Of a stretch of 64,000 nt of DNA, positions 10,391 through 63,580 are shown one piece after another. Origin of the DNA: Candidatus Enterousia intestinigallinarum (lineage in GTDB: Bacteria; Pseudomonadota; Alphaproteobacteria; Rs-D84); assembly GCA_018716885.1 (NCBI GenBank), contig DVJI01000012.1, forward strand, positions 78,050-142,049. The letters run 5' to 3'. Made by a program: the position numbers and the translations under genes. Every line of letters begins with the position of its first letter. Within the stretch, counting starts at the first letter, position 1. Below the pieces are notes generated by a model. The model did no database searches. It worked only from the letters and a program-made list of their open reading frames with translations, and was not told the DNA's origin.

Positions 10391-13300
10391 TTATTCCATA
10401 CTGTCATCATATACAGAATAGGTTGTTCCACCAGAGTTCAACTTCAACGCACCTATACCACTGGCCCCCATATTTCCATAGAACGTTGTTCCATTGATAC
10501 TTACGTTCAGGGACGGGGTAGTTTTCCGTTCACTGCGCAGATAAATCTTTTCACCGTTGACGTTCAACACACGTCCACAGTCACCGACTTCATCAGCACC
10601 GGCACCGGAACCTATCGTGGTCAACCCGTCATCACACGCATTGCGAACACCTGCGCTGCCCTGGGATACGGTGGATGCCGCCGCCCAATATCCGGCACCA
10701 ACATCAGAACACGTTGTGTTATTTGCCGTTGCAATATATGAACCACCACCACAAGAAATCTTACAATCACTTGCCGTATCGTGGTTTGCGGCCGCGGTGC
10801 CACTGATTGTATAGTTGGTCAAACAGTTGCTGTACGAACTGATACTGCCCTGGGCGACACTGTGTGCACCGACGTACCAGTTACCAGCCGGTGTAGTACA
10901 ACTTGTTGCGTTTGCCGCGGTAATTCTGGTACCCGCCGCACAACTGATTTTACAATCCGTTGATGCATCGTGGTCCGTACGCGCTGTTGTATTTGGCGTT
11001 GAATAATTCGTCAGGCACGCTTTGACCGTTGTGGTCGGCGTTGTTGAGCCCGCCGTCACACTGTGTGACGCAGTGTACCAGCTGCCCGTTGGCGTTGTAC
11101 ACGCTGCATCTGCTGTTACCACACGGGTACCCGCCGCACAAGTAATACTGCAATCAGATTTTGCATCGTGATTCGACGCTGCGGTACCACTGGTTGAATA
11201 CCCCGACGGACACGCCGTACACGCCGACATTCCAGTTGATGCGGCATAAGTATTAGCAGCACACACCGAACAAGACGTTGCGGTACTGTCATCAGTCCCC
11301 TGGAACGTGCCAACCGCGCACGCCGGACAGGTTATGCCGCTGACATACCGTCCTGCTTTTGCAGTAACAGATTTCACGGTTTGCTGACAATCTTCACTAT
11401 TCGTTGAACACCCTGATTTAATTGTGCCATCTGCACTGCCTGTGCTGTTAGAATATGCCACGTATGAACAGGCCGGCAAAGTACAGGTGTTACACGTGCT
11501 GTCCGAACAGCCAGTTGGTGTTGCACAAGATATTTGTTCACCGGTCCACGCACGTGACTTGCTGTTACTGTAACAAGATGTAATAGCAGCAGCACCGGCA
11601 TCTGAATTCGGATAACCAGACGGGCAGGTGTTGCGTGTACTGGTTGAACCATAGCTCACGCTATGTGCCGCACGATAGTACCCGTCACCAACCGCCGTAC
11701 ACGCCGCCTCTGCGGTTGCAACGTACGTACCGCCCGCACAACTGGTTTTGCAGCCGCTTTCGGATGATGCCGCCGCACCGCTGCGATAGTTCGCCGGACA
11801 CTGGGTTCGTGTACTGGTCGAACCATAGTTCACAGTATGTGCCGCACGATAGTATCCGGTACCGACGGATGTACACGCCGCATTAGCCGTGGCAACATAT
11901 GTCCCACCAGAACAGGATATCTGACAAGATGACGCCGCGGTTTTTCCAGCTGTGGTATTGGCGGTATACCCAGACGGACAATTATTCTGCACACCACTGC
12001 TGCAATATGTCGCGCCAGTACACTGCGACTGACCAGTACAGTTGTTGCCACTGGTGTTGCAGCCCGTTGTATAATAACCACTGCCGACGGTGCTACACGC
12101 CGATGCGCCATCCGCACTGTACTTAGTACGTCCAGTACACGCACTGCACGAAGATGTTGATCCGTAATAAACCGTATGCGCCGCTTTATATGTACCCGCC
12201 TCACAGGTCGATACAGATGTCGCATTTGCCGTTGCAACGTATTTACCGCCGGAAACACTCATATAGCATTTAGATATACCACCTTCATTACCATCAGCAG
12301 AATTTGGATATGCCGACGGGCAGGCACTGCACGACGTTCCATTGTCATAGTACCCAGCATCTGCAGTTACCGCTGCCGGTGTTTTTGTACAATTAGACGG
12401 TGTGCACGTCGTATCGGTTGCACTTTGATAATCACGGTATGAACAAGTCCCCGGGGTACAACTGTTCCACGATGTAACACTGGCGCAGTTGGCCGGAACA
12501 CTGCCGTTTACCTGGTTACCGGTCTTCGTTTTTGTTACATAGCAGTACGCGTCGCTGATATTGCCGCCGTCGGATTTCGGATAACCAGATGGGCAGGCAC
12601 TGCAGCTTGTTCCGTTCACATAGAAGTTTTCCTTTGCTGTGACGGCCTTTGGTGTTTTGGTACAATTAGACGGCGTACAAGTACCATCAGTTGCACCATT
12701 ATAATCCTTATACTGACAGGTTCCTGGGGTACAACTGTTCCACGATGTAACGCTGGCGCAGTTGGTCGGAACACTGCCGTTCACCTGGGATCCGGTTTTT
12801 GTCCCATACTTATAACAATATGAACTGCTGATATTACCACCATCTGAATATGGGTACGAAGAACCACATTTTGCGGCACTACCACCACTCAAGTAATAGT
12901 TGTCATCAGCAGACGTACACGTTTGTGGTTTCGTACAATTAGTCGGTGTACAATCACTTACAATCGTACCACTGTATTGCTTGGTATACGTACAAGTCCC
13001 TGGGGTACACGTTCCCAACGTACGCGCCGCACACCCAGTTTGCATAGACGGCGTTGTTTGTGAACCGGTCTTTGTAAACGAACCAACGCAAGAATTCTGA
13101 TTGGCTGCACCAGCACCGTCACGATACCCGGATGGGCACTGTGCCTGGGCGCTGTTACTGGACTTGTAAAATCCATCTGAAACCGTTTTACACGATGTTT
13201 GGCCAACTGCATTTTGATATTGCAAAGAACCACTGCACGCACTGCGGCCGGACGTTCCACCGGGACAGGCATATCCCGCTTGGCACTGGGTACAGGTTGT

Positions 13301-14197
13301 ACCATTTACATACGCACCGGCCTTGGCAGATAATGCTGACGATACCGTCGTTGCACCCCACGCGGTCGCACTGGTCGCGTTTTGTTTTAACGTACCGGCG
13401 CTGCAATACGTACTGGCCGATGTTGCTGCGCGCGTTTGATTACATTGGGTATACGATGTCCATCCGGTGCCACTATTACGCGTCCACCCGGACGTCTGCG
13501 CCGGACAACTGTTCTGAACACCACTGCTGCAATATGTCGCACCCGTGCATTGTGATTGACCGGTACAGTTATTACCACTGCTGTTACACCCGGTTGTATA
13601 ATATCCACTGCTGACCGTTTTACACGACGATGCCCCGGCCGCACTGTACTTTGTACGTCCTGTGCATGCACTGCACGATGCGGATGCCTGGGTGCCACTG
13701 CCGGGCTTGTACGTACCGGCCGAACACGCCGACCATACTGCATATACCGTATCATTGGCGGTAAATGTCATAGATGTCGAACCAGACGTCGCAGTACTGG
13801 ATGTTGACCATCCCTTGAATACATATCCAGCACGATAAAACGTCGTTGTCGCACCAGATTGCAATGAACACGAAGCCCCCTTGTTACAAGTCTTGTTGGC
13901 CGGCTTTGTTCCAGACCCACCGTTCAAATTGTATGTAATCGTAACAGTCTGTTTAACCGGCGCAGATGTTCCCCCAGCACACGTATAATAAGAACCATAA
14001 TCCGAACATGGACGACATGCGTTCCCAGCCCTTGGGGTGCCATTATATACCGTGCTTGATGAAGATGTCGCCATATAATACCCAGATGCACAACTGGTAT
14101 ATTTCTTGTAACTGGGACAAGAATAGCCAGCAGCCAACGCATTGCCGGCAAAAATCAACATAAACAAACACGCTAAATAACGCAGAATTTTTGACAT
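10391..14197 (-). CDS. Very large (1268 aa) secreted Cys/Ser/Thr/Gly-rich repeat protein with many CxxC motifs (surface protein, uncharacterised)
   Basis: N-terminal signal peptide MSKILRYLACLFMLIFAGNALA. Several long internal repeat units, e.g. ...YGSTSSCSACTGRTKYSA...GYYTTGCNSSGNNCTGQSQCTGATYCSSGVQN... occurs twice, and CTPGTC...NGSVP.NCASVTSWNSCTPGTC recurs. No hydrophobic core. Confidence 0.8.
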   Translation of the reverse strand: MSKILRYLACLFMLIFAGNALAAGYSCPSYKKYTSCASGYYMATSSSSTVYNGTPRAGNACRPCSDYGSYYTCAGGTSAPVKQTVTITYNLNGGSGTKPANKTCNKGASCSLQSGATTTFYRAGYVFKGWSTSSTATSGSTSMTFTANDTVYAVWSACSAGTYKPGSGTQASASCSACTGRTKYSAAGASSCKTVSSGYYTTGCNSSGNNCTGQSQCTGATYCSSGVQNSCPAQTSGWTRNSGTGWTSYTQCNQTRAATSASTYCSAGTLKQNATSATAWGATTVSSALSAKAGAYVNGTTCTQCQAGYACPGGTSGRSACSGSLQYQNAVGQTSCKTVSDGFYKSSNSAQAQCPSGYRDGAGAANQNSCVGSFTKTGSQTTPSMQTGCAARTLGTCTPGTCTYTKQYSGTIVSDCTPTNCTKPQTCTSADDNYYLSGGSAAKCGSSYPYSDGGNISSSYCYKYGTKTGSQVNGSVPTNCASVTSWNSCTPGTCQYKDYNGATDGTCTPSNCTKTPKAVTAKENFYVNGTSCSACPSGYPKSDGGNISDAYCYVTKTKTGNQVNGSVPANCASVTSWNSCTPGTCSYRDYQSATDTTCTPSNCTKTPAAVTADAGYYDNGTSCSACPSAYPNSADGNEGGISKCYMSVSGGKYVATANATSVSTCEAGTYKAAHTVYYGSTSSCSACTGRTKYSADGASACSTVGSGYYTTGCNTSGNNCTGQSQCTGATYCSSGVQNNCPSGYTANTTAGKTAASSCQISCSGGTYVATANAACTSVGTGYYRAAHTVNYGSTSTRTQCPANYRSGAAASSESGCKTSCAGGTYVATAEAACTAVGDGYYRAAHSVSYGSTSTRNTCPSGYPNSDAGAAAITSCYSNSKSRAWTGEQISCATPTGCSDSTCNTCTLPACSYVAYSNSTGSADGTIKSGCSTNSEDCQQTVKSVTAKAGRYVSGITCPACAVGTFQGTDDSTATSCSVCAANTYAASTGMSACTACPSGYSTSGTAASNHDAKSDCSITCAAGTRVVTADAACTTPTGSWYTASHSVTAGSTTPTTTVKACLTNYSTPNTTARTDHDASTDCKISCAAGTRITAANATSCTTPAGNWYVGAHSVAQGSISSYSNCLTNYTISGTAAANHDTASDCKISCGGGSYIATANNTTCSDVGAGYWAAASTVSQGSAGVRNACDDGLTTIGSGAGADEVGDCGRVLNVNGEKIYLRSERKTTPSLNVSINGTTFYGNMGASGIGALKLNSGGTTYSVYDDSME

Positions 14198-20675: not shown

Positions 20676-21947
20676 TTATTGACGTATCAAAGATTGAATT
20701 GTTTGCGGTACGGAAACTGCCTGTTGCAGGGTAAATCCAGATGACCGCAATACGAACGGTGAAGTTGTACTAACACCATTTTTTACGCAATCGGAATATG
20801 CCTCTGCCTCGGCAATCATCCAGCATTGGTTGTTCAACGGCGTTTCCTTTGATTGACCGGTACCATACTGCATTGTGGTCTTATCATATCCGGCCGCCGC
20901 AACACAGTAATTTGTTGACGGGGAATCTGCGTCAAATATATATCCAATATCACACTGAATACAAACACCACCGTCCGGTGACGCACCACCACGCAGATTT
21001 TCCGTACACGGTTGGCACGTTCTGTCCGCCAATGACGGGAAAGCATAACCCTTTTCACGACATCTGTATGTATAGCATCCCATATTGTCGTTAAATTCCA
21101 ACATCATTGTCGCTTCATCAAATCCATTGCTGGGCCAGTTTGAACACGTCTGGGTCAGGGCACACGCTGTTTCATCAATGGCAACGCAATCATTACCCGC
21201 CGCATTGGCAGTATAACCATTTTTGCACAGCAATGTCGCTTCGCCCGCGGGCCAACCATCAATACCACCGCGTTTACTTTTCCACCCTTCGCGACGTGCA
21301 CGAATAACAAAAGGTTGTGCATACGCCCCGTGTCCACTTGCCAGCCAGTCAGACACCACCAAAATCATATCGTGTTCCTGGCCCTTATGCACCCCGCAGC
21401 CATTATATTGATTCCAATGAAACATTGCCACGGCTGATTCAACCTGTGGATCACGCGCCATAGTTAAACTGTTAAAATCATCACGACGAAACGGTGTTGA
21501 ATCACATCCAGTCGGGGCGGAATCCTGGCAACCTTCACCACCGAATCCCGGTTTGCACAACCAATAACAGGTCTGCGCACCCTGACCAGATTCCGCATAC
21601 AATGTCCAGGCATTACCTTTTTTCTTTTTTTCGGCATACACCGTGGTTGGACAGAACCGTGCGCCATTTTCATTTACTTCGCGCGCAACCAGCAACAACA
21701 CCCCCATATCGTCGCCCAACACACATTGCCCCGGGGAATTTGCATCAATGCCATAATTTCCCTTACAGGTATCCTTGTACCGGCCGATTGTCGCATTCCC
21801 AAAATTAGAACTCTGACAGTGGCTCATAACCGGATTTTTCCAACTGCCCAACAGCGCATTTATATTATTTTCACCACCGGCAATCGCAACACACGGAACA
21901 ACTTGTGCAATAAATAATGATAAAAGTATGTTTCGTATATTTCTCAT
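20676..21947 (-). CDS. Secreted cysteine-rich protein (424 aa), uncharacterised
   Basis: Signal peptide MRNIRNILLSLFIAQVVPCVAIAG with a ribosome-binding site upstream. About 30 Cys. No recognisable domains. Confidence 0.6.
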   Translation of the reverse strand: MRNIRNILLSLFIAQVVPCVAIAGGENNINALLGSWKNPVMSHCQSSNFGNATIGRYKDTCKGNYGIDANSPGQCVLGDDMGVLLLVAREVNENGARFCPTTVYAEKKKKGNAWTLYAESGQGAQTCYWLCKPGFGGEGCQDSAPTGCDSTPFRRDDFNSLTMARDPQVESAVAMFHWNQYNGCGVHKGQEHDMILVVSDWLASGHGAYAQPFVIRARREGWKSKRGGIDGWPAGEATLLCKNGYTANAAGNDCVAIDETACALTQTCSNWPSNGFDEATMMLEFNDNMGCYTYRCREKGYAFPSLADRTCQPCTENLRGGASPDGGVCIQCDIGYIFDADSPSTNYCVAAAGYDKTTMQYGTGQSKETPLNNQCWMIAEAEAYSDCVKNGVSTTSPFVLRSSGFTLQQAVSVPQTIQSLIRQ

Positions 21948-21960
21948 TTTAATTACCTGT

Positions 21961-24477
21961 TTATTCCGCAACATAACATACGGAGTTTTCATAATACCCG
22001 CCCATCAGTTCTTCGCACTGTGCACGATACCATTCATCGGTAAATGTGCATTCGTCACGCGACAAATCATATGATGCAACCGGTGTTTCCAATCCGTCAT
22101 TATAATCCAGGCAACGCAACATTGTCGTGTTTTCAACACAGCGTCCCCAATCGGTTACTTCATTACCACCATACACCTGTCTATAGAACCCAGACAGCAA
22201 AGTTCCTTCGCCACTGACACGACTGTCAACAACGTTAGTAACACTGTCATCATTATCCATCCAGTACCCATCCAATTCTTCACAAGTTTCCATCAACTGG
22301 TAATCCAGTTCTTCCTGAATATCATCTATTGCGCGTTTTATCTGATCACTAACCTGTGCGATAAATTCATCACCGGAACTGGTCGGATCCGCACAATTTT
22401 GACTTGCAAAGTTCTGAATAGATTCTTCCAATTCATCCGGACTCATATTACGGCAGTTCCACGGATAGCCCATTTCTCCATCATCCGGGGTGCACAAATC
22501 CGCCAGATAATTATCAATCGCGGTTTCGCAGCCCTCGGTAATACGAACGGTATCAACCGTGTCAACAAACGCCAACAAAGCGGTCAGACCACACCGGTCT
22601 GCGGCGGCAGCACCAGTTAAACTGCTGCTGTTATTACCGCTGCCGGCCACTAATCTGCCATTACCATCAAATTCACAACCGTCAGTGTTTCCATACAATG
22701 ACGCACAGGCGATAACCTGATCCTGGCACATTGAACGTGCAGCATACGCACTGATTGCACCGGTATATTGCGATGTAGTATTGTCAAAATCCTGCAACGC
22801 GCCAGTTTGCGTATCATAACATTCGGCCATAGTGCTGACACAGGACATTTTGACTTCTTCTATTTTTTCATCCTGTGCCTGTGCAATTTCAATCAGGGCC
22901 TGGCGCTTAAATTCTTCCCATACAATATCAGATATATCACGACAGGTATCTAATGCGCTTTCTGCAAACATACGTTTGTCGTCCAAAAATGTATTAAATT
23001 CCGAATTTGCACTCAATACATCACCAGCGTTACTGGCATTTACCCCCGGCAGTAATATCATATTCGTCAATTCAAACAAGCGCGGTGAATAAATCGGCTC
23101 ACCCGTACTTTGGTTGATATATGCCCCGGTATAGTCCAAACAACGTTGATAATTCGGACCACAGGCCGTATCCGCCTGAATAGCGGAACGAACATTTGCG
23201 ATACATTCGTTCACGTCGGCTGAATTATGTGATTGATATTCTTCCAGACGTGCTTCACGCAGGTATTTTTCCGCCGTACGTACAGTTTGTTCCAATCCCT
23301 CTTTTTGAGAATTTATATTTTTCTCATACAGGTTGCAATCCTGTGTAATCATAATGCTGTACGCGCTGCGCGCCATTGTCAAAACGGCATTATTCTCGCA
23401 AGAATCTGCGATTAAATCCAGACATTGTTTGCTGGCCTCGTTATACAAATCCTGGCCGGTCAGGGTGGACAAATCAACCCCCGTTGACGTATCAAATATA
23501 GAACTGCCAGAATCGCCCCAAATATCACCCAAGTCAGATGTAAAATCAACCGTCAACAGCCCCAGCGAAGTCCCCGACGAACTGGATGACGAAGACGATG
23601 AACTGTTTCCAGACAACAAATCACTGATTTCCGACAACATATTTGCCGCGGCACTGGTGTCACGTTTGATTGCATTTTCACCCTCGGTCGCGGTGTACAT
23701 TGCGGTAACTTCTTCGGCCGTCAGATTGACCGCCGTCAGATTATTATCCTGGAACTGCGCCAACAGGTTTAATGCCTGGTCAATCGCGTTTTCCGTATCA
23801 CGAAATTCATCATATCGGGCACTGCACACGCATCTGCGGTATGTGTCATTTGCATTTGCACAAAACTGATCCATACAGGTTGCATACGCTTCACGACATT
23901 CTGCATAACCGCCCCCAATGGCAGAAATATCTGTAAAGACCGCTGTTGCACGCGCGGTTGATGCACGCGATGCCCCAACAACGGAATTAGTCGATGCCGC
24001 ACGCGCCGTACTGGCCGGATTATGCGTTGCGCCACGCACGACATTTGACGATGCCGCACGCGATGTGGTTGCACTGCGTGCCGCAGTTGCTGATGTCGGA
24101 ATCGTCTGACGAATTGTGCCGCTACGTCCAGTGACAACATTTGTTGCCGATGGCATAATATTTGCCGAACGCGCCACAGTCGTGCTGGGGCGTGATGTCG
24201 CACTGCGCGACACGGTTGTTGCCGCCGCACGTCCTGAAACAGTTGACGTCGTTGTCGGTGTTGTACCCGACGTTGCAGCGGAATTTACACGCACAACGCG
24301 ACTGCTGTTTGCACGCGATGTTGCACCAGTGGCCGCGTCCGATGTCGCAACCGTAACAGACGCCGTGGACGAGCCACGTGGATTTGGTGCCTGTTCAGCC
24401 AACGCCGGCCAGCACAGTGCCAACACCGACCAAAAAGCAAGTGAATATTTGCAAAAATCAGCAACGCGTTTAATCAA
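21961..24477 (-). CDS. Large secreted protein (838 aa) with a Thr/Ala/Arg/Ser-rich N-terminal low-complexity region and a conserved Cys-containing core; paralog of 60824..63580
   Basis: TTG start followed by signal peptide (…SLAFWSVLALCWPALA). The core aligns block by block with the 918-aa protein, e.g. C.EAY..CMDQFC...D.YRRC.CS.R, ATEGENA, GPNYQRCLDYTGAYINQSTGEPI. Confidence 0.65.
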   Translation of the reverse strand: MIKRVADFCKYSLAFWSVLALCWPALAEQAPNPRGSSTASVTVATSDAATGATSRANSSRVVRVNSAATSGTTPTTTSTVSGRAAATTVSRSATSRPSTTVARSANIMPSATNVVTGRSGTIRQTIPTSATAARSATTSRAASSNVVRGATHNPASTARAASTNSVVGASRASTARATAVFTDISAIGGGYAECREAYATCMDQFCANANDTYRRCVCSARYDEFRDTENAIDQALNLLAQFQDNNLTAVNLTAEEVTAMYTATEGENAIKRDTSAAANMLSEISDLLSGNSSSSSSSSSSGTSLGLLTVDFTSDLGDIWGDSGSSIFDTSTGVDLSTLTGQDLYNEASKQCLDLIADSCENNAVLTMARSAYSIMITQDCNLYEKNINSQKEGLEQTVRTAEKYLREARLEEYQSHNSADVNECIANVRSAIQADTACGPNYQRCLDYTGAYINQSTGEPIYSPRLFELTNMILLPGVNASNAGDVLSANSEFNTFLDDKRMFAESALDTCRDISDIVWEEFKRQALIEIAQAQDEKIEEVKMSCVSTMAECYDTQTGALQDFDNTTSQYTGAISAYAARSMCQDQVIACASLYGNTDGCEFDGNGRLVAGSGNNSSSLTGAAAADRCGLTALLAFVDTVDTVRITEGCETAIDNYLADLCTPDDGEMGYPWNCRNMSPDELEESIQNFASQNCADPTSSGDEFIAQVSDQIKRAIDDIQEELDYQLMETCEELDGYWMDNDDSVTNVVDSRVSGEGTLLSGFYRQVYGGNEVTDWGRCVENTTMLRCLDYNDGLETPVASYDLSRDECTFTDEWYRAQCEELMGGYYENSVCYVAE

Positions 24478-49661: not shown

Positions 49662-52052
49662 TTACAGCAACGGCGGGAAACAATCGCCACCGGCTTCTGG
49701 GCAACAGTTGAATCCCATATCACCCATATCGGTATAAACTTCACCAGTGCAGCACCCGTTCACGTCCGGCGCCGTACCGTCTGGACAGGTCGGCAAATCT
49801 TCAACCGTATCCGACCATACCACGGACGTTACAGATTGCGGAACATATCCGTCATCGGACGCCACCGATGCTTGGGATGAATTTAATCCGGATTGATTTT
49901 CCACCGGCGCGCTGACAATCGACGGACCGACTGTATCAACGGCCTGCATATTATTTTGACGCAATGTTTCGGTATCGTAATTTTCATCTGCGACAAACAT
50001 ATTTTCATTTTGTGAAACGTTATATGCCGGCTTGCTGGCCAAAATTTCTTCTTCAGTTGGAATTTCCGGCTTTGGTTCAGTGCTTGAAACTGGTGTGGTT
50101 ACGGCGACAGATTCAACAACCACATCAGCTGCTGGCACTTGTTCAGCAACCGTTTCTGGTGTATCAACAGGTTCCGGTTCTGGTTCTGTCACTGGTTCTG
50201 GTTCCGGAATTTCCACGGGAGCCGGTTCTTCCACAACAGGTTCCGGTTCGGGTTCTTCCACAGGAACGGGCACTGTTATTTGCGTTTCAACAGTTTCAAC
50301 TGCGGCCGGCGTTTCCAATTCCGGTATAAACGGACTGTCCGCATCAGTTAAATCATCTGCCTGTGCGGTTTCCGTTGTGGTTGGCACTGTTGCGGTTAAA
50401 TCAGGTGCATTTTCACTGGTGTTCTTTTGATACAACCACAATGTAAATATAGACAACCCAATCAACAACACCAACATTATATAATAAACTAATGTAGGTT
50501 TACGCGGTGCTGGATTACTTGGCGCCACATTACCAGTAATCGGCGACACAGGACGCGGCGCGGACGCAGCAGCCGAAACAGTTGACGCCGGCGGGACAGG
50601 GCGCGCCCCTGCATCTACCGCTGGCGACGCCGTGGCGGGCGCCTGGGGTTCTGGATTTTGTGCCGCTGGCAGCGGTTCAGATTCTGCATCTGGTACAACT
50701 GGCGAAATATTCGGCACCAGTTCAGAATCTAATTGTTGGGCAGAATTATCCGCGGCCGTCGGCATATTCACGGACGTAATTGTATCCAAAACCGGTGTTG
50801 TTGCTTTTTCATCTGATACACGCGGTGCTTCTTCACCAGTTACAGGTCTGACATTTATTGGCGCGTTGTCCGCACGCTTATCAGACGGTGGTGTGAACGA
50901 CAACGGTTTGTCATCAATAATATTTTCATACACTTCCGGATTGTCGGTAACCGGACTTGTTTCATCAGACACCGGACTGGAAACACCAAACTCAATCGGC
51001 TTAAACGCGATTTCTTCGTCCAATATTTCCGGGTCTTTATCAAACAGTGGTTTTACCGCATCATTATTTGTTTCATCGGCCATTATTTCCGCCTTTGGTT
51101 CTTCATTTATATTTTCTGTAAATTCCACGCGTTCTTCTTCATCAACAGGCATACGTGCAACCACATCATCATCAGACGCCACGGCCGCAACACTGGTATG
51201 TGCAGGCGCACCAACCGCAGTTGATTCAACAGGCGCAGAATCACCGGCCACGGATTCTTTGTCATCCGTATCAAAATCCACATCCGTATCATAAGACACA
51301 TTGTATGTTGTTGTAACCGATGGAATAGCATCGTGTGCCTGCGGGGCATCGACATCACGCACAACAGCAACCGGTGCACGCGCCAAAATTTCACGCGCAA
51401 TTTGTGCATCTTCGTCCGCAACAATCAGGCGCCGCTGTGCATTATCCAGACGTTTTTTTGCACGACGCAGTTTTTCATTTGTTGCATCAATCTGCGCATC
51501 CGTACGCAATATTTTAGACGCCGACTTTTTTGTCGGTTCACGTCCGACCTGTTTTTTCTGTTGCGACAACTTGGCCCGCAACTGGCGTAATTTCGTTTGC
51601 AGTTCGGCAATGCTTTCACGTGTTCTGACGATTGTTTCGCGTGCAGTTTCGGCATTTGCATCTGCAACGGCCAAACGTTCCGTCGCTGCGCGCCGGACGG
51701 AATCTTCACGAAAAGCAGTCAGTGCCGTCAGCGCCGCCGTCAAATCATCGCCATTTTCATATGCGTTGATTAAATTGTCGTATTCAGCCAAGCCGCTGTA
51801 TTCAATATCTAACTTTTGATATTTATTATTTTTCTTTGGGCGCACAGTTTCCAAATCAACGTTATAATCATTGGCCAAAATGTCATCCCATTTGCGGTCA
51901 CCAACCGGATTTATCACCAAAAGAGCATTTGGCTTGCGATCGTCCAGCGTGCTGTCCAAAACAAACACCAACTTATCATCGGCATCATAATACGCACGCA
52001 ACACGTTTCCGGCGATATTGTATTCCCTGAACGTCAAAACAGATTTATCCAT
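49662..52052 (-). CDS. Single-transmembrane protein (796 aa): cytoplasmic coiled-coil N-domain, one transmembrane helix, periplasmic acidic Pro/Glu-rich repeats and a Cys-rich C-terminal knot
   Basis: Ribosome-binding site (GAGAGGGAAAA) then ATG. Heptad-like region LRQLRAKLSQQKK...LRRAKKRLDNAQRRL. Transmembrane helix LVYYIMLVLLIGLSIFTLWLY. Repeat run EPEPEPVVEEPAPVEIPEPEPVTEPEPEPV. C-terminus CPDGTAPDVNGCCTGEVYTDMGDMGFNCCPEAGGDCF. Confidence 0.6.
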   Translation of the reverse strand: MDKSVLTFREYNIAGNVLRAYYDADDKLVFVLDSTLDDRKPNALLVINPVGDRKWDDILANDYNVDLETVRPKKNNKYQKLDIEYSGLAEYDNLINAYENGDDLTAALTALTAFREDSVRRAATERLAVADANAETARETIVRTRESIAELQTKLRQLRAKLSQQKKQVGREPTKKSASKILRTDAQIDATNEKLRRAKKRLDNAQRRLIVADEDAQIAREILARAPVAVVRDVDAPQAHDAIPSVTTTYNVSYDTDVDFDTDDKESVAGDSAPVESTAVGAPAHTSVAAVASDDDVVARMPVDEEERVEFTENINEEPKAEIMADETNNDAVKPLFDKDPEILDEEIAFKPIEFGVSSPVSDETSPVTDNPEVYENIIDDKPLSFTPPSDKRADNAPINVRPVTGEEAPRVSDEKATTPVLDTITSVNMPTAADNSAQQLDSELVPNISPVVPDAESEPLPAAQNPEPQAPATASPAVDAGARPVPPASTVSAAASAPRPVSPITGNVAPSNPAPRKPTLVYYIMLVLLIGLSIFTLWLYQKNTSENAPDLTATVPTTTETAQADDLTDADSPFIPELETPAAVETVETQITVPVPVEEPEPEPVVEEPAPVEIPEPEPVTEPEPEPVDTPETVAEQVPAADVVVESVAVTTPVSSTEPKPEIPTEEEILASKPAYNVSQNENMFVADENYDTETLRQNNMQAVDTVGPSIVSAPVENQSGLNSSQASVASDDGYVPQSVTSVVWSDTVEDLPTCPDGTAPDVNGCCTGEVYTDMGDMGFNCCPEAGGDCFPPLL

Positions 52053-53235: not shown

Positions 53236-54144
53236 ATGGACAGAGAAATGAAATCGAAAATATTATCCATAATCGGTGCCGTATTCGGTCTGGGGGCAAT
53301 GCCGGCAATGGCAACGACATTTCCGACAACCACAACGCCTTTTTCACAATATGGCCAAATTCAAAATGTTCAAAATTATTCATCAAATCCATTTTGGAAC
53401 CCGAACAGCCCGTATAACCAGCGTATGCCCGTACCAGTTTATGTTCAGGGTACCGATGTGGATACAAACGATTGTCAAACGGTTGTTGGGGCATTGGTGT
53501 CGGCATATTGTGCATCGCGCAACAACTGTGTTGGGATTGACGTTGACGACGCGCGCCCGACGTTGACCGTACAGTTGGCCAGTTTGCCTAACCATAACTA
53601 TGTCACACCGTGTGCTGGATATATCGACACGGAATTCAGCAAATATGTATCCCAAAATGCACTGGCCGTACCGACGGGCGGGGCGGTTGCATTTCCAACG
53701 GCAACAACACCAAACACAAACACGAACAGCCAACCGGCGGAATTTCAAAACCCATATCAGCAGCAATTACCAACCTGGAACGGCGAACCGTGGATGCAGG
53801 ATATGCTTGAACGCAAACAGGAATTGGAACAACTGCAATCTGCGACCACTGGTGGCGATACAACATTGGCACGTGCTGACTTTCCGTCATCGGCATCAGA
53901 TTTGACATTTACCCAGCGGATTCAAAACGACGCGGCGGGCTATGCACCATACACGGGCAAATCTGCATACCGTACAATCAACATAGAAAGTGAAGAGGCA
54001 TACCAACAGCGTACAAATGCATATTGCTCATCTGAAATTGCCAAACTTACAACAATTGATACAGACCTGGCAACACTATACAAATGTAAAAACGACGGAA
54101 CTCCGTTCAACGATTGCAAAAAATTATTAAAGGGAATTTATTAA
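53236..54144 (+). CDS. Secreted Gln/Asn/Pro/Thr-rich protein with Cys pairs (302 aa), uncharacterised
   Basis: Signal peptide MKSKILSIIGAVFGLGAMPAMA. First of four consecutive exported-protein genes after cpaA. Confidence 0.5.
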   Translation: MDREMKSKILSIIGAVFGLGAMPAMATTFPTTTTPFSQYGQIQNVQNYSSNPFWNPNSPYNQRMPVPVYVQGTDVDTNDCQTVVGALVSAYCASRNNCVGIDVDDARPTLTVQLASLPNHNYVTPCAGYIDTEFSKYVSQNALAVPTGGAVAFPTATTPNTNTNSQPAEFQNPYQQQLPTWNGEPWMQDMLERKQELEQLQSATTGGDTTLARADFPSSASDLTFTQRIQNDAAGYAPYTGKSAYRTINIESEEAYQQRTNAYCSSEIAKLTTIDTDLATLYKCKNDGTPFNDCKKLLKGIY

Positions 54145-54146
54145 AA

Positions 54147-55244
54147 ATGCGCAAAAATTTGGCCGTCTTTTTTGCCACAGTTGCATTGTTATTCGTTGCA
54201 GATGATGCAAATGCTTTGATGTGGAACGACCCTGGCGTAACCCCGGTGCAGAGTATTTCTGATCACCGTTGGCGTGACGCGAACACCGGTCGCCTGATAA
54301 ATGTTACGGGTATGCCAAATGCAACCCCCACACCAACACCAACGCCAACTCCCGCACCTGCACCTGCACCAACACCAACCCCCACCCCAACTCCTTCTCC
54401 GGCACCGACCCCAAGTCCTGCACCAAGTTCGTCTGGCACTACGACGCCACGCACAAATTGGGGCAGTATGTCAAAGGCTGCAAGGGCGGGCGCCGCACTG
54501 GGTATTGTCGGTGGCGCAGCCGGCGTATATGCATCAACCGCGGGCCAGGGCGAGCACAGTGGTTGGAATGTTGCCGGTGGCGCGGCCAGTGGTGCAATTG
54601 CCGGCGCATCAATTGGCAGTATATTCCCAGTAATCGGTACTGGTATCGGGGCAGCTGCTGGCGCGGTTATCGGTGGTTTAATATCTGGTTCCCAATTGTT
54701 TTCGGAAACAGATTGTCTTTATGACCCCGTGACAGGTATCTTTACTTGCTGTAATACGGTATTCAATCAAGGGGAACGCCAGGCAAATATCGGCGATTAT
54801 ATGTTTTGTGGCGTGGAACAGGATGGTACCAATGTTATCGCCGCACCGGGTGTCCGCCAATGTTTACAGGGAAAAATGAAAGACGAATCCACTTGGTCCG
54901 ATACCGCCGCGGGGTGGTGGGACGGAATGTGGGTTGATGATTTTTGGCAACCAGAATGCGTGGCTCGCTATTGTACGGAATCCGGCGCGCCGGCCGAAGG
55001 CATAGAATCATATATCGAATACATACCAGATACAACAAACTATTGTTGGAACTGGGATTGCGTTTCCGGCTATACGCGCAGTGGTAACACCTGTATCGCC
55101 GCATCAACAAACGAACCGGTCAACCCATACACAACACCAGAAAGCCCAAATGCAAACCCATACGATGTATTGATACAACAACTGCAGCAGTACCGCACAA
55201 ATATTATCAGAATGTGCGGATATATGTTGGGTACAAATAAATAA
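54147..55244 (+). CDS. Secreted protein with a Pro-Thr/Pro-Ala linker, a glycine-zipper segment and a Cys-rich C-terminal domain (about 365 aa)
   Basis: Signal peptide MRKNLAVFFATVALLFVADDANA. Linker PTPTPTPTPAPAPAPTPTPTPTPSPAPTPSPAPSS. Glycine-zipper GAALGIVGGAAG...GAIAGASIGS...GTGIGAAAGAVIGGLISG. 18 Cys in the C-terminal 170 aa. The ORF track extends the frame upstream to a TTG at 54114. Confidence 0.5.
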   Translation: MRKNLAVFFATVALLFVADDANALMWNDPGVTPVQSISDHRWRDANTGRLINVTGMPNATPTPTPTPTPAPAPAPTPTPTPTPSPAPTPSPAPSSSGTTTPRTNWGSMSKAARAGAALGIVGGAAGVYASTAGQGEHSGWNVAGGAASGAIAGASIGSIFPVIGTGIGAAAGAVIGGLISGSQLFSETDCLYDPVTGIFTCCNTVFNQGERQANIGDYMFCGVEQDGTNVIAAPGVRQCLQGKMKDESTWSDTAAGWWDGMWVDDFWQPECVARYCTESGAPAEGIESYIEYIPDTTNYCWNWDCVSGYTRSGNTCIAASTNEPVNPYTTPESPNANPYDVLIQQLQQYRTNIIRMCGYMLGTNK

Positions 55245-57467: not shown

Positions 57468-57544
57468 TGGTGGATGTGATTGGACTCGAACCAACGACCT
57501 CTTCGATGTGAACGAAGCGCTCTAACCAACTGAGCTACACATCC
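57468..57544 (-). tRNA. tRNA-Val (anticodon CAC)
   Basis: Cloverleaf ggatgtgtagctcagttggttagagc... with anticodon loop ttcacat and a CCA end. Confidence 0.85.
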
Positions 57545-57690
57545 AAAAACAACGCCCCAAAACAAGGCGAACTGTATTCTAGCACCTTGGCAAATTCGGC
57601 GCAAGTAAAAAACATATACAAAAAGTTGATTTTTGTCATTATTCGTCTATCATTTCAAAAAACACCACTTTATACCAAGGGAGCACTTTG

Positions 57691-58581
57691 ATGAAAGGCA
57701 TCATTTTAGCGGGCGGCAGCGGAACACGTTTATACCCGTTGACCAAGACGACTTCAAAGCAGTTACTGCCCGTATATGACAAACCAATGATTTATTATCC
57801 TATGTCAACACTGATGCAGTTTGACATCCGCGATATTCTGATTATATCCACCCCCCAAGATACGCCGAACATTGAACGTCTGTTTGGCGATGGCAACACG
57901 CTGGGTATGAGCATCCATTACGAAATACAGCAACGCCCCCAGGGGATTGCCCAGGCATTCACCATTGGCGAAAAATTTATCAACAACCAAGACGTATGTC
58001 TGATTTTGGGCGATAACATATTCCATATGGGCGAACAGTTCCCCTGGTTCCGCAAAACGGTTCAGAAAAACCAGGGTCAACGCGCAACAATCTTTGCATA
58101 TCACGTATCTGACCCCGAAAGATTTGGTGTTGTTGAATTTGACGACAAACTGAACGCCGTATCAATCGAAGAAAAGCCCAAAAATCCAAAGTCAAACTTT
58201 GCGTCTGTTGGATTGTATTTCTATCCCGGCGACGTAGTTGAAAAGGCAAAATCATTAAAACCGTCTGCCCGCGGGGAATACGAAATCACCGATTTGAACA
58301 ATATGTACCTGGCGGAACACAGAATGTCCGTTGTACCGATGCAGCGCGGTAACGCGTGGTTGGACGCGGGTACGCCAAAAAGTTTGATGGATTCCAGCAA
58401 CTTTGTTCAAATTATGGAAGAACGCCAGGGGCTGAAAATCGCCTGTATCGAAGAAATCGCATATCGTCGCGGTTTTATCAATAAAAAACAGTTAAACCGC
58501 ATAATAGACGGCCTGAAAGACAGCGATTACAAGAAATACCTGATAAAAGTATCAATGGAAACAAAACACAGGTTATACTAA
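57691..58581 (+). CDS. rfbA: Glucose-1-phosphate thymidylyltransferase
   Basis: MKGIILAGGSGTRLYPLT...KQLLPVYDKPMIYYP is the RmlA signature. Ribosome-binding site (aagggag). Confidence 0.9.
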   Translation: MKGIILAGGSGTRLYPLTKTTSKQLLPVYDKPMIYYPMSTLMQFDIRDILIISTPQDTPNIERLFGDGNTLGMSIHYEIQQRPQGIAQAFTIGEKFINNQDVCLILGDNIFHMGEQFPWFRKTVQKNQGQRATIFAYHVSDPERFGVVEFDDKLNAVSIEEKPKNPKSNFASVGLYFYPGDVVEKAKSLKPSARGEYEITDLNNMYLAEHRMSVVPMQRGNAWLDAGTPKSLMDSSNFVQIMEERQGLKIACIEEIAYRRGFINKKQLNRIIDGLKDSDYKKYLIKVSMETKHRLY

Positions 58582-58634
58582 AAAACAAACGGGGCGAAAT
58601 TTTGCCCCGTTTGTTTATACAAATTTGATTGATT

Positions 58635-58721
58635 TGGTGGGGATAGTGGGACTCGAACCCACACGGTTGCAATAACCAAAGGATTTTAAGTCCTCAGCGT
58701 CTACCATTCCGCCATATCCCC
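58635..58721 (-). tRNA. tRNA-Leu (anticodon TAA)
   Basis: ggggatatggcggaatggtagacgc..., anticodon loop cttaaaa, a long variable arm and a CCA end. Confidence 0.85.
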
Positions 58722-58799
58722 GGACAACAAATCTGCCAAATATACTATCGCGCGACGGGCGCGCTTGTCAATATTTTTCTGAATATCTGGCGCGTTTTA

Positions 58800-59288
58800 T
58801 TATTGTTGCTGCATTTCTGCAATACGCGCACGCAACGCTTCCAATGCCGCCACCGGATCATCAAAACCCAATACGGATTGTTCCAACGGGCACAGACCGT
58901 CACGGTTCCTGTTCAAAATCCGCGGAACCATTGTGCCGTATGACACCGCGATATTATGCGCGGCCAATAATTCTGCGCCGTCCTGACTCATCAATTCACC
59001 ATAGACCGCGGTCGCCCCGCCATTTATGGCAATAAAGGCCGCCGCACGACCGATTACTTTGTCCACAACCGTTGCGCCAGCCATTTTATCCGCCGCTGTA
59101 TCATACAAATGTAACAGCGGATTTACACCACCGCCACTTTCAAACGCGACTATTTCATTATCACGCACCAATATGCATTCGGCACGGCCGTCCGCAATCA
59201 TTTTCTTGGCCGTATCAACCGCGGAATCGGACGAGCATCCCGCCACCGCGCAAAACGCAACCATAACCAGCGCAATCAGTTTTTTCAT
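58800..59288 (-). CDS. Lipoprotein, hypothetical (162 aa)
   Basis: Lipobox VAGCSS. No function recognised. Confidence 0.5.
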   Translation of the reverse strand: MKKLIALVMVAFCAVAGCSSDSAVDTAKKMIADGRAECILVRDNEIVAFESGGGVNPLLHLYDTAADKMAGATVVDKVIGRAAAFIAINGGATAVYGELMSQDGAELLAAHNIAVSYGTMVPRILNRNRDGLCPLEQSVLGFDDPVAALEALRARIAEMQQQ

Positions 59289-59291
59289 ATT

Positions 59292-60416
59292 TTACTCCTT
59301 TATTTGTGGTGTCAGTTTTATAATTGTTATCTCCGTTGGTGCAAACAGACGCATTTGCGGACCGCCCTGGGAAATTCCACGCGAAACGTACAGGCGCGCA
59401 CCGCCGTCCAAATCATATTCCCCGGCCAGATATGGCGCGTGCAGATACATCAGAAATATAATCGGTATAATCTGGCCGCCGTGTGTATGCCCAGCAATTT
59501 CGAAATCAAACGCGTTTTCACGAAAACTGCCCGGTGTATGTGATGCCAGCAATCTAAATTGCCCCGGCGTGGCATCTGCAAATGTTTTTGCCATATCATA
59601 TCGGTGACCGCTGCGCCGGGACGAATGTATATCCGGAAACCCACCCAAATAGATATCCGATCGCAGGGAAACACCACTGTTTTCCAAAAATGTAAATCCC
59701 AAATTTTTCAGTGCCGCAACCGACGCGTCATATCCGGAATATGTTTCGTGATTGCCGGTGACAAAGTATACGCCATCTGGCGCAGATAAGTTCTGTAACA
59801 GCGCCATATGCGTTGTAATACGTTCCAGTGCGTCATCTATTGTATCGCCCAACAGTATAACGGCATTTGGGTTCTGTGCATTGGTTTTATCGACAATTTT
59901 TTGCACACGGCGCGGCGACATAGTCCGCTGAAAATGCAAGTCGGGCAGGGCGGCAACCGTATATTCCGCCGTAATTTTTGGCGATGTTACGGTTACAACC
60001 CTGACCGCCGGCGTACGCAGTCCCGCATACAATGCGTACGCCCCCATAACAACCGCCACCGCAACTGTCACCAAGTTGACCCGCAGGACAACCGTAATAT
60101 CCATAGGACTAGGCGCCACACCACACAGATACAGAATTATCCAAACCGCATCACGCAACAGCGTTATTGTCATCAATATAATCGCGGTCATATATGTAAA
60201 AGATATTATATTGCAGATAACCGGATATGCGCGCCCCCAGAAATCTTCAAATTCATATCGTCCCAACTGTGGCAAAAATCCAATTCCAGTAAATAGAACC
60301 AGCATTATCAGTTTTCCCCACCAGGGCACATTAGAAAGCATCGCATACCGGACGAACAAAATCCCCATTGCGATAAATCCGATTATAGACGTGCTGGATA
60401 GTACCCCAAAATTCAT
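59292..60416 (-). CDS. Membrane-anchored calcineurin-like metallophosphoesterase
   Basis: N-terminal polytopic membrane region followed by a phosphoesterase domain (GDTIDD, GNHE, GHTHGGQ). Confidence 0.7.
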   Translation of the reverse strand: MNFGVLSSTSIIGFIAMGILFVRYAMLSNVPWWGKLIMLVLFTGIGFLPQLGRYEFEDFWGRAYPVICNIISFTYMTAIILMTITLLRDAVWIILYLCGVAPSPMDITVVLRVNLVTVAVAVVMGAYALYAGLRTPAVRVVTVTSPKITAEYTVAALPDLHFQRTMSPRRVQKIVDKTNAQNPNAVILLGDTIDDALERITTHMALLQNLSAPDGVYFVTGNHETYSGYDASVAALKNLGFTFLENSGVSLRSDIYLGGFPDIHSSRRSGHRYDMAKTFADATPGQFRLLASHTPGSFRENAFDFEIAGHTHGGQIIPIIFLMYLHAPYLAGEYDLDGGARLYVSRGISQGGPQMRLFAPTEITIIKLTPQIKE

Positions 60417-60504
60417 ACTTTCCCCCTGAATTTATTCGCAAAAAATATAGCGATGCTGAAAAAATAAAGCAATAAAAAACCGCCCAAACGGACGGTTAAA
60501 ATCT

Positions 60505-60580
60505 TGGTGGAGCTGATGGGACTCAAACCCACGACCTCTACGATGCGAACGTAGCGCTCTATCAACTGAGCTACAACCCC
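60505..60580 (-). tRNA. tRNA-Ala (anticodon CGC)
   Basis: ggggttgtagctcagttgatagagcgctacgttcgcatcgtag... with a G3:U70 pair typical of tRNA-Ala. Confidence 0.8.
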
Positions 60581-60585
60581 ATAAC

Positions 60586-60672
60586 TGGTGCGGATAAGAG
60601 GACTCGAACCTCCAAGGCATTGCTGCCACTAGTACCTGAAACTAGCGCGTCTACCAATTCCGCCATATCCGC
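60586..60672 (-). tRNA. tRNA-Leu (anticodon CAG)
   Basis: gcggatatggcggaattggtagacgc..., anticodon loop ttcaggt and a long variable arm. It lies 5 nt from tRNA-Ala. Confidence 0.85.
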
Positions 60673-60823: not shown

Positions 60824-63580
60824 ATGAAGAAAATTCTGCATTTTATCGGTATTTTCGCCGTGTGCATTGGCGTCGCCAATGCGGCTGTACGTGATGAAAA
60901 TGCGACGAATCGACAATCTGCAACAACATCTGCATCTCAATCAACAATATCACGCACCGCATCGACCAAGGCCGCCGCCGCACGCAACGTAACCGCGCGC
61001 ACCGCCACGTCACAACCGCTGACATCGCGCACGACACAACAGGGCGCAACAATATCACGCACTGATTCCACAACTGGGCGCAGCGCAACCGCACGTGCGA
61101 CCCAGGCCGTCACCCCAACCACAACGGCGCGCAGTGGCGCGACCGTATCACGCAGTGCGACGGCCGTACCAGCATCGACACGCGGCACAACAACGGCACG
61201 CGGCACAACAACGGCACGCAGTGGTGTGACTGTATCACGTGCCGCGATTGACACTGTTTCCGACGTTGTCGCTGACACGCGCACTGGCGCTGAATACGAG
61301 CAATGTAAAACCGCATATTTCAACTGTATGGATCAATTTTGCCAGTTAAAAAACGATGATTATCGCCGTTGTTCGTGCAGCAACCGCGTATTTGACCTGG
61401 CTGAAACACGCAGCATTATGCAAGACGCCAGTGACCAACTGACCGTATTCACGGAAAACCTGGACGTTGTCGGTATGACCGCGGCCCAAGCGACCGCGAT
61501 GAAAACCGCGACCGAGGGTGAAAATGCCCTGACATCTGACACTTCGGCATCCAAGCAGTTATTACAAGCAATTATGAATTCTATCCGTGGTGACGACGCA
61601 ACTGTTGGCGGAAAATATTCCGACCTGAACAGTATAACTTTGTCATTTGACACGGTGAACGCATTTGGTACCGCTGACGCCGGCCAGATAATTGCGACAT
61701 ATAACGGCCTGAACCTATATAACGCGGTATATCCCCAATGTCGCCAGGCAGTACGTGCCGACTGTACCGACGCACAGCTGCAACGCGCAATAACTGCATA
61801 TCTGATGGCTGTTGAACAAGATTGTAACACTGTTCAATCAGCGCTGGAAAATCAACAGAAACAAATGAAATCCGCCGTCCGCGAAAGCAGTGCTATGCTG
61901 GATTTGGCCCGTGTAGAAAATCGCCAGAATCATAATTCCAGTGATATGGCAACCTGCCTGACCGAAGTTGAAAATGCTATTTTAAGTGAAGAGGTCTGTG
62001 GTGCCGGATATCACAAATGTTTGGACAACGGCGAATTTATCGACGTATCAACCGGGGCGCCAATCGCCGGGGTGGAAAATTTCTATGAACTGGGCAACTT
62101 GTTGAAATTTGCGGATGGGGTTGACGCGGCCGACCAAAAACTGTCCAAGGTTACGTCCAATCGTTCATTTGTGAACAACTTTGAAAATCGTGTAAAAAAA
62201 TTTGCCGAACCTGCACTGGACAAATGTACAGAAATCGCAGATGATGTCTGGGCCGACTATTTGGACAAGGCAATGTTGGACATATACTATGCCCAACAAT
62301 CCAAAGTGAACGAAATTAAACAGGGATGTTTTGATTTTGTGTCGGCCTGTTATATGAACGGCGATACCGCACTGACGGCGGCAATGGCCGAACTGACCGG
62401 CGACGACACGGTTGTATTGCAACCGGACAAGGTTACATTATCCACAGAAATGTGCCGCGATTACATCAATTCGTGCAATATGATGTTCTATGACCAGACC
62501 GACGGTCAAAACATAATTACTGATTATATAAACAACCGCCAGGAAACAGATACTCTTACAGCGTGTCGCGCGGTTGTAAAACAATGCTTTGATAATTTTG
62601 GCGGAACAAATTACGAAAACTTCTATTATCCGTACAGCGGACTGTTCAAAACTGGCGAAGCACTAAAATGGTTCACTCTGTACGAATATGACGAAAACGG
62701 TACTATCAACACAGCCGAACCAGTATCAGAATGTGCAAAGCAGTTGATGGATATTTCATCGTGCAGTTCACCAGATATGATGGTGGCGGCATTTGGTGGA
62801 TTTGATGTCATAACCGCATCCAAGGGCATACACAGCAACGAAACAGTTTATTACTTTGATCCCGATGGTGATTACAAGGAAGACGGAACCGATGGCAAGC
62901 ATAGACGATATGGCCTGTTAGATGACGAAGTAACAGATGGCGTAACGGACAAAAATGGTACTGAAAATACATCTCAACGCATATTGGCGCACCATACGCC
63001 ACGTCCAACGGGTGTTGCGACAGAAATATACAATCAAATTGTCGATACACTGACAACGCAGTGTATGAACGTCCAGGGACGTTTCATAGAATTACAGTTT
63101 ATAAAAACAAATTTATACAACGAAGCCGCCCTGTGCAATGCACAATTTGGTGCATCCATTGAATACGGCGGTTCTGCGACCCCGGGCCAAGTGTCGTTGT
63201 ACCCGAACTTGGTTGAATATTATAAAATCGGTGATAATGAAAATATGTGCCCGCGCGACTATGACCTTAATGTAGATACGCAATCGTGGGGGGCGTGCCT
63301 GTGCTGGGAAAACGGGGGACGACGCAGCAAATACGGGAAAAGCCCGAAATGTGTCGCCGGCATACCAACCGATACCGCACGAAATGATGCCAACTGCACA
63401 GCAGCAGATCTTACATCACCTGTTACTGGAACACCCGGAATTGATAAATGGTGCACAATGCCACTGACGTCTGGGAACCAGGTTTGCCCGATTGGTCTGA
63501 ACGGGGGCAAAGAAGAAAATGAAATGTGCGTGTACGACGGTGAAGAACTGAATAATCTGCCCGAAGGGTTGGGAATCTGA
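60824..63580 (+). CDS. Large secreted protein (918 aa) with a Thr/Ala/Arg/Ser-rich N-terminal low-complexity region and a conserved Cys-containing core; paralog of 21961..24477
   Basis: Signal peptide MKKILHFIGIFAVCIGVANA. N-terminal TTARSGATVSRSATAVPASTRGTTTARGTTTARSG tracts. The core aligns with the 838-aa protein. Confidence 0.65.
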   Translation: MKKILHFIGIFAVCIGVANAAVRDENATNRQSATTSASQSTISRTASTKAAAARNVTARTATSQPLTSRTTQQGATISRTDSTTGRSATARATQAVTPTTTARSGATVSRSATAVPASTRGTTTARGTTTARSGVTVSRAAIDTVSDVVADTRTGAEYEQCKTAYFNCMDQFCQLKNDDYRRCSCSNRVFDLAETRSIMQDASDQLTVFTENLDVVGMTAAQATAMKTATEGENALTSDTSASKQLLQAIMNSIRGDDATVGGKYSDLNSITLSFDTVNAFGTADAGQIIATYNGLNLYNAVYPQCRQAVRADCTDAQLQRAITAYLMAVEQDCNTVQSALENQQKQMKSAVRESSAMLDLARVENRQNHNSSDMATCLTEVENAILSEEVCGAGYHKCLDNGEFIDVSTGAPIAGVENFYELGNLLKFADGVDAADQKLSKVTSNRSFVNNFENRVKKFAEPALDKCTEIADDVWADYLDKAMLDIYYAQQSKVNEIKQGCFDFVSACYMNGDTALTAAMAELTGDDTVVLQPDKVTLSTEMCRDYINSCNMMFYDQTDGQNIITDYINNRQETDTLTACRAVVKQCFDNFGGTNYENFYYPYSGLFKTGEALKWFTLYEYDENGTINTAEPVSECAKQLMDISSCSSPDMMVAAFGGFDVITASKGIHSNETVYYFDPDGDYKEDGTDGKHRRYGLLDDEVTDGVTDKNGTENTSQRILAHHTPRPTGVATEIYNQIVDTLTTQCMNVQGRFIELQFIKTNLYNEAALCNAQFGASIEYGGSATPGQVSLYPNLVEYYKIGDNENMCPRDYDLNVDTQSWGACLCWENGGRRSKYGKSPKCVAGIPTDTARNDANCTAADLTSPVTGTPGIDKWCTMPLTSGNQVCPIGLNGGKEENEMCVYDGEELNNLPEGLGI

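Follow-up and report, generated by a model that had tools for sequence, protein, structure and literature searches.

The window analyzed here is a 64,000-nucleotide stretch of contig DVJI01000012.1 from Candidatus Enterousia intestinigallinarum, and its subject is an exact 18-bp tandem repeat in the N-terminal coding region of a gene for an exported, cysteine-rich protein of 918 amino acids (aa). The open reading frame (ORF), predicted by the initial annotation at 60824-63580, is confirmed on the forward strand. The features of the gene are as follows, with the basis for each in parentheses.

60824-63580, forward strand: gene for the exported Cys-rich protein, 918 aa (ORF listing)
60824-60883, forward strand: Sec-type signal peptide, aa 1-20, MKKILHFIGIFAVCIGVANA, with probable cleavage between ANA and AV (inspection of the sequence)
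60884-60913, forward strand: mature N-terminal motif AVRDENATNR, aa 21-30, containing D-E-N-A-T (alignment of homologs)
60914-61246, forward strand: low-complexity region, referred to below as the linker, aa 31-141 (composition, predicted disorder, and counts of polymorphisms and indels)
61179-61183, forward strand: CACGC, a 5-bp microhomology ahead of the repeat unit, present again at 61197-61201 and 61215-61219 (sequence; Tandem Repeats Finder, TRF)
61184-61201, forward strand: repeat copy 1, GGCACAACAACGGCACGC, encoding GTTTAR, aa 121-126 (exact match, TRF)
61202-61219, forward strand: repeat copy 2, with the same sequence as the first and again encoding GTTTAR, aa 127-132 (exact match)
61247-62623, forward strand: conserved helical, disulfide-rich core, approximately aa 142-600, common to the paralog and the whole family (homology, predicted structure)
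62651-63577, forward strand: C-terminal alpha/beta domain, approximately aa 610-918, specific to the ortholog group of this protein (predicted structure)

The tandem repeat and the protein that contains it

The 18-mer GGCACAACAACGGCACGC occurs exactly twice, head to tail, at 61184-61201 and 61202-61219, for which the chance expectation is 0.08 matches with three mismatches allowed. TRF reports the tract at 61179-61219 with a period of 18, 2.3 copies, 100% matches, and a score of 82. The first base of the repeat is also the first of a codon, and translation gives R120-GTTTAR-GTTTAR132. The initial annotation had described a 15-nt duplication at about 61186-61221; it was right that there is an exact tandem repeat, and it quoted the peptide correctly, but the unit is 18 nt (six codons) and the span is 61184-61219, a displacement of 2 nt. 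Biased composition does not account for the repeat: 5000 codon shuffles of the low-complexity region produced tandem runs of at most 15 nt, none of them reaching 18 nt, as against the 23 nt observed at period 18. An ORF on the reverse strand at 60937-61323 was considered as a gene and rejected as a product of that bias.

The linker is 111 residues long and consists of 28% Thr, 21% Ala, 15% Ser, and 12% Arg (Thr, Ser, and Ala together 64%), with one acidic residue; its G+C content is 63%, compared with 47% for the rest of the gene. An AlphaFold2 model, built with a 93-sequence alignment, has a predicted local distance difference test score (pLDDT) of about 30 for aa 11-148, and this segment is therefore predicted to be disordered. 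The initial placement of the repeat in an exported low-complexity region thus holds, the Sec-type signal peptide being assigned by inspection and the repeat lying within the predicted disordered region. Residues 143-600 are modelled as long helices, with pLDDT mostly 45-85 and including poorly modelled stretches, and aa 610-918 as an alpha/beta domain with pLDDT of 85-92.

The signal peptide begins with MKK, continues with a hydrophobic stretch, and ends at ANA, followed by AV; by inspection, a canonical lipobox is absent. Identity as a lipoprotein was rejected on these grounds, since Val or Ile precedes the signal-peptide Cys. The mature part contains 30 cysteines. In the alignment nearly every residue of aa 20-30 is invariant, and the 4-mers DENA and ENAT are each present in 31 of 33 orthologs. 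The D-E-N-A-T within this motif fits the extended bacterial N-glycosylation sequon D/E-x-N-x-S/T, and there are three more putative sequons of this form in the protein, at aa 623, 709, and 855.

Comparisons with known families and structures gave no assignment. Scans of the 918-aa protein and its paralog against Pfam, NCBIfam, PHROGs, and PADLOC returned nothing above threshold, PDB sequence searches with the single sequence or a 93-sequence profile found no match to the 918-aa protein, and Foldseek comparison of its full-length model with the PDB found none at E < 1. No sorting signal, beta-barrel, or lipobox was recognized in the family scans or the AlphaFold2 model.

Copy number among strains and evolution of the linker

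Each of the 18 other same-species protein alleles (144 contig observations, the main 90% cluster, of 207 members, being represented by 15) has one unit, reading PAST-RGTTTAR-SGV, and each of seven same-species DNA sequences from independent samples (L001, L002, and L083-L087) is likewise single-copy. The two-copy allele is one of 19 protein alleles; the window has two units and all others have one, so that there is a single variant allele. The exact protein of the window does not occur in a collection of 15 billion protein sequences; its nearest relatives in the databases are 98% identical and 912-913 aa long. A metagenome scan with a pattern allowing one or two copies recovered one contig, with a single copy, and adds little to the allele count.

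The seven DNA sequences are 98.4-99.0% identical to the window over 2.7 kb and differ from it in length only by the 18-bp block and by a 3-bp ACA (Thr) indel at 61070.

61070-61075, forward strand: ACAACT, site of the common 3-bp ACA (one Thr) indel; the short form is that of the window and 6 of the 18 alleles (allele comparison)

Both of these indels lie inside the linker, at short repeats, and are in frame, which answers the question, raised at the outset, of whether length changes here keep the reading frame. The 912- and 913-aa classes within the species differ by the single Thr codon only, and the one-copy alleles (912 or 913 aa) and the two-copy allele (918 aa) are all full-length with an identical C-terminus. 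The closest alleles to that of the window are P0133, which differs by three substitutions and the 6-aa block, and P0125, which differs by four substitutions and the 6-aa block; because these are so few, the duplication must be very recent. Single-copy alleles read CACGC-GGCACAACAACGG-CACGC, that is, with the 5-bp microhomology repeated at a spacing of 18 bp, an arrangement on which slipped-strand misalignment would be expected to act.

The linker as a whole is far more variable than the helical core. Within the species it has 0.19 polymorphic sites per residue (aa 31-141), compared with 0.011 for the helical core (aa 142-600), a difference of about 17-fold, and among 46 orthologs it has 0.0625 gap blocks per residue per sequence, compared with 0.0021 for the core, about 30-fold. 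The ratio of nonsynonymous to synonymous polymorphism (pN/pS) is 0.3-0.8 in the linker, 0-0.04 in the helical core, and approximately 0.1 in the C-terminal domain, each value being based on 2-7 substitutions per class. Older repeats can also be recognized, the clearest being the following.

61118-61152, forward strand: older, diverged direct repeat of 35 nt, TTTARSGATVSR / TTTARSGVTVSR, 86% identical to 61205-61239 (repeat family D2)

In addition, there is a repeat family of 25 nt, and a degenerate array with a 24-nt unit occupies 60991-61048. These diverged repeats show that earlier duplications built the linker. TRF finds tandem repeats in the N-terminal region at 11 of 82 orthologous loci, of which ten have them in the linker and the other in the signal-peptide region; apart from a single period of 13 nt, the periods are 15, 18, 21, 24, or 27, and the arrays reach 3.5 copies at most. 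All 82 loci and all same-species alleles have intact ORFs. The 33 orthologs examined share the cationic, acid-poor, Arg-rich Thr/Ser/Ala composition of the linker, and this composition is conserved, but not the exact sequence or the length. Conserved Arg positions were considered as a possible linker motif and rejected, since conservation in alignment columns may be an artefact of low complexity; compositional conservation alone is used here. Taken together, these results depict a segment under relaxed constraint that tolerates changes in length and is extended now and then by in-frame duplications, which later diverge, with selection maintaining the frame and the composition.

Two more segments of the gene are hypervariable within the species and rich in indels between species: 62894-63013 (aa 691-730), with 0.125 polymorphic sites per residue, and 63359-63577 (aa 846-918), with 0.068. 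These are probably exposed loops or the tail of the C-terminal domain.

Genomic setting, protein family, and other repeats

The host is a strain from the human gut and belongs to Candidatus Enterousia, a gut alphaproteobacterium of the order Rs-D84 with a genome of about 1 Mb. Enterousia genomes are approximately 0.75-1.0 Mb and are without the tricarboxylic acid cycle, respiration, and most biosynthesis; the predicted lifestyle is that of an obligate symbiont or parasite, dependent on partner cells (PMC12306168). Orthologs of the 918-aa gene are present at 80 genome loci, nearly all in metagenome-assembled genomes labelled as gut alphaproteobacterial, Candidatus Enterousia, or "Rickettsiales", and across the genus the gene belongs to the core set and keeps its syntenic position. 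Contigs of the same species, recovered from metagenomes of the human gut and other sources, have identical synteny, with genes for an NTP-transferase, a TM1506 protein, and a metallophosphoesterase, the tRNAs, the 918-aa gene, LpxB, and LpxA. Two tRNA genes lie upstream.

60505-60580, reverse strand: tRNA-Ala (CGC), divergent from the 918-aa gene
60586-60672, reverse strand: tRNA-Leu (CAG), divergent from the 918-aa gene, with its 5' end 151 nt from the ATG

The gene had been noted as sitting immediately after this pair, and the pair is indeed 151 nt upstream, but both tRNAs are on the reverse strand and are transcribed away from the gene. Of 20 orthologous loci sampled from across the genus, 18 have the pair directly upstream, and the adjacency is therefore ancestral and not the mark of an integrated element; a genomic island at the tRNA genes was rejected for the same reason. 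Most Enterousia loci have one tight cluster of four tRNAs, Val(CAC)-Leu(TAA)-Ala(CGC)-Leu(CAG). In the species of the window (57468-60672) the TM1506-family and metallophosphoesterase genes (58800-60416) lie between tRNA-Leu(TAA) and tRNA-Ala, and in some species the pairs are inverted.

The 918-aa protein had been described as the second member of a secreted paralog family, and a paralog is indeed present in the window.

21961-24477, reverse strand: paralog, 838 aa, with a signal peptide, a Thr/Ser/Ala/Arg low-complexity region, and a Cys-rich helical core (homology, 34% identity, E = 1e-66)

TRF finds no tandem repeat in the low-complexity region of the paralog, and its three closest database clusters, at 98-99% identity, share its length of 838 aa. 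It has an 11-residue poly-Ser run with mixed codons at aa 292-302 (about 23560-23604). An ORF at 20676-21992 on the reverse strand, encoding an exported, Cys-rich protein of 438 aa with no family match, follows the paralog with a 32-nt overlap, and the two may form a two-gene unit.

The family to which both proteins belong comprises 698 clusters at 50% identity with E <= 1e-3, with most matches spanning approximately aa 20-600, and the homology is over the helical Cys-rich core (960 and 1026 homologs). Of the 960 homologs of the 918-aa protein none is named and none has a Pfam domain. A cationic, acid-poor, Arg-rich Thr/Ser/Ala region precedes a C-x6-C-x4-C-x9-C-x-C motif in 120 of 149 representatives, and in these 120 that region has a median of 12% Arg and about 2% Lys, with a net charge of +7 to +22. 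The window protein and its paralog conform to this plan, each with a signal peptide, a cationic Thr/Ser/Ala/Arg disordered region, and a helical core carrying the cysteine motif. The members of this Rs-D84/Enterousia family are all unnamed and lack both a Pfam or NCBIfam model and a solved structure, and the comparison gives no function; a literature search pairing Rs-D84 with "cysteine-rich" found nothing. Another large Cys-rich exported protein, of 1268 aa with 94 Cys, is encoded in the window at 10391-14197 on the reverse strand and has weak matches to Flg_new (Listeria-Bacteroides repeat) and Ephrin_rec_like.

Other repeats are present elsewhere in the window. At 54322-54414, within a forward-strand ORF at 54114-55244, there are 11.7 copies of the hexamer CAACAC and 2.3 copies of a 36-nt period, encoding (Thr-Pro)n/(Ala-Pro)n in an exported protein. 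Compared with the 18-nt repeat, this tract is longer, more repeat-like, and a better candidate for length variation. A second 18-nt tandem repeat, with 2.2 copies and 85% matches, is at 51263-51301, within a reverse-strand ORF at 49662-52052 that encodes 796 aa with an acidic low-complexity middle part and no Pfam match.

Origin of the duplication and comparison with known systems

We propose that the repeat arose recently by slippage, as an in-frame duplication within a disordered linker that is confined, among the available sequences, to this genome and is probably near-neutral, and we assign this reading a probability of roughly 0.8. Replication slippage (slipped-strand mispairing) between the two CACGC microhomologies 18 bp apart most likely gave rise to the 18-bp tandem duplication. 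The duplication adds one GTTTAR hexapeptide (6 aa) to the predicted disordered Thr/Ser/Ala/Arg-rich N-terminal linker without changing the frame, and it is probably the latest step of the duplicate-and-diverge process by which the linker was built. In principle, the new 41-bp perfect tract could contract or expand again by the same slippage. Because the linker, which may act as a tether or spacer, conserves its cationic, acid-poor Thr/Ser/Ala/Arg composition and not its exact sequence or length, the duplication is probably neutral or nearly so.

Several points weigh against this interpretation. The evidence for the duplication comes from a single assembly, its near-neutrality is something that we infer, and the pN/pS values derive from the small numbers of substitutions given above. 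Rarer two-copy alleles could exist, given the share of the main 90% cluster that is represented, and the extra GTTTAR module could have an effect of its own, for example on length, on charge, or as a modification site.

The alternative that survives best is that the repeat is a selected site of size or antigenic variation, at which the linker copy number of a surface protein is varied to evade host immunoglobulin A or phage, or to tune the reach of an adhesin. No other part of the gene is as polymorphic or as rich in indels as the linker, the species has two in-frame indel polymorphisms, orthologs in other species have short in-frame tandem repeats of their own, and the protein is exported by a predicted obligate gut symbiont or parasite, all of which are compatible with such a role. 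However, the two-copy form is confined to one of 19 protein alleles and to none of the 144 other contig observations, there are two copies here and a maximum of 3.5 in any ortholog, and the linker pN/pS is below 1, which points to relaxed constraint rather than positive selection. Surface exposure is moreover a supposition, a signal peptide being all that can be inferred, and overall we regard selection of this kind as unlikely.

An assembly or sequencing artefact, with a true sequence that is single-copy, would explain why the duplication is found only in the window and why the exact protein is unmatched among 15 billion others. It is nonetheless highly improbable, as the inserted block is an exact copy that is aligned with the codons, keeps the frame, and has microhomology at its edges, as biological slippage would give, typical reads and k-mers are longer than the 41-nt tract, and the gene is otherwise a normal allele with 98.4-99.0% identity to same-species sequences. 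Assemblers, furthermore, tend to collapse repeats and not to create them.

Finally, a phase-variable contingency locus, at which slippage would turn expression of the 918-aa paralog on and off, has in its favor that tandem repeats in the 5' coding regions of surface-protein genes are associated with phase variation, but it is effectively refuted by a unit of 18 nt (six codons) whose whole-unit changes are always in frame, by intact ORFs at the 82 orthologous loci and in all same-species alleles, by linker repeat periods in orthologs that are nearly all multiples of 3, and by a 151-nt upstream region in which no homopolymer or short-unit tract is seen by eye.

The initial description of a classic slipped-strand variation site is accordingly sound in so far as there is an exact tandem copy with CACGC flanks, copy number differs between near-identical strains (two in the window, one in all others), and the frame is kept. 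In the sense of a hypermutable contingency locus it fails, with one copy in all other alleles, with 2.3 copies of an 18-nt unit that cannot switch frame, and with no array above 3.5 copies at 82 orthologous loci.

As a recent slippage duplication, the event is an ordinary one: a textbook case of microhomology-mediated duplication that leaves the frame of a disordered linker intact, observed while still a singleton, and showing how low-complexity regions grow. The linkers of the Cys-rich family would also be natural strain-typing markers. A more interesting lead than the duplication itself is that several large genes of these uncultured bacteria, whose genomes are about 1 Mb in size, encode an unannotated exported Cys-rich family. 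Its proteins may plausibly be part of the machinery with which the lineage interacts with a partner or host. It is conceivable, if rather doubtful, that the Arg-punctuated Thr/Ser/Ala linker is a functional, fast-evolving module, a cationic tether or glycosylated stalk, of an undescribed disulfide-rich surface family that the genome-reduced Enterousia use to attach to a partner cell or to host mucus. If so, in-frame duplications such as that of GTTTAR would be the raw material of selected length or antigenic diversification, and the confidently modelled C-terminal domain, with no PDB match, could be a new binding fold.

The duplication can be compared with three kinds of known system. The simple sequence repeats of meningococcal contingency loci (PMC4085013) share with it a presumed mechanism, polymerase slippage on a direct repeat; those loci, however, are long tracts of 1-8 nt units whose frequent changes shift the frame or promoter spacing. 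The window tract has 2.3 copies of an 18-nt unit, is always in frame, and is invariant in all other sampled strains; a long short-unit tract, a shift of frame or promoter spacing, and high-frequency variation among strains are all absent.

In-frame repeat rearrangements in surface proteins occur in, among others, Mycoplasma Vlp/Vsa and the group B streptococcal alpha C protein. In Helicobacter pylori CagY (PMC2194252) and Bartonella BadA (PMC8859334), as here, there are direct repeats in the coding region of an exported protein, and because units are gained or lost whole, the frame is preserved while the length changes between strains. Those systems differ in having large arrays (many copies, long units), many alleles, and documented functional or immune consequences, whereas the window has two copies of a 6-aa unit in a single strain, with no sign of recurrent variation and with surface exposure only supposed. 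Two exact GTTTAR units are repeated in frame downstream of a Sec-type signal peptide, as in size-variable proteins of the variable-number tandem repeat type, but a multi-copy array giving a size range is not found (none above 3.5 copies at 82 loci), and the protein would be a variable-number repeat protein in the minimal sense only.

Microhomology-mediated tandem duplication and indel polymorphism in disordered low-complexity linkers are a general phenomenon. The window duplication has the features of this class, namely short flanking CACGC sequences, an exact tandem copy, a predicted disordered segment of biased composition, a raised indel rate, and older diverged copies nearby; there is no essential difference, and this is the category that fits it best.

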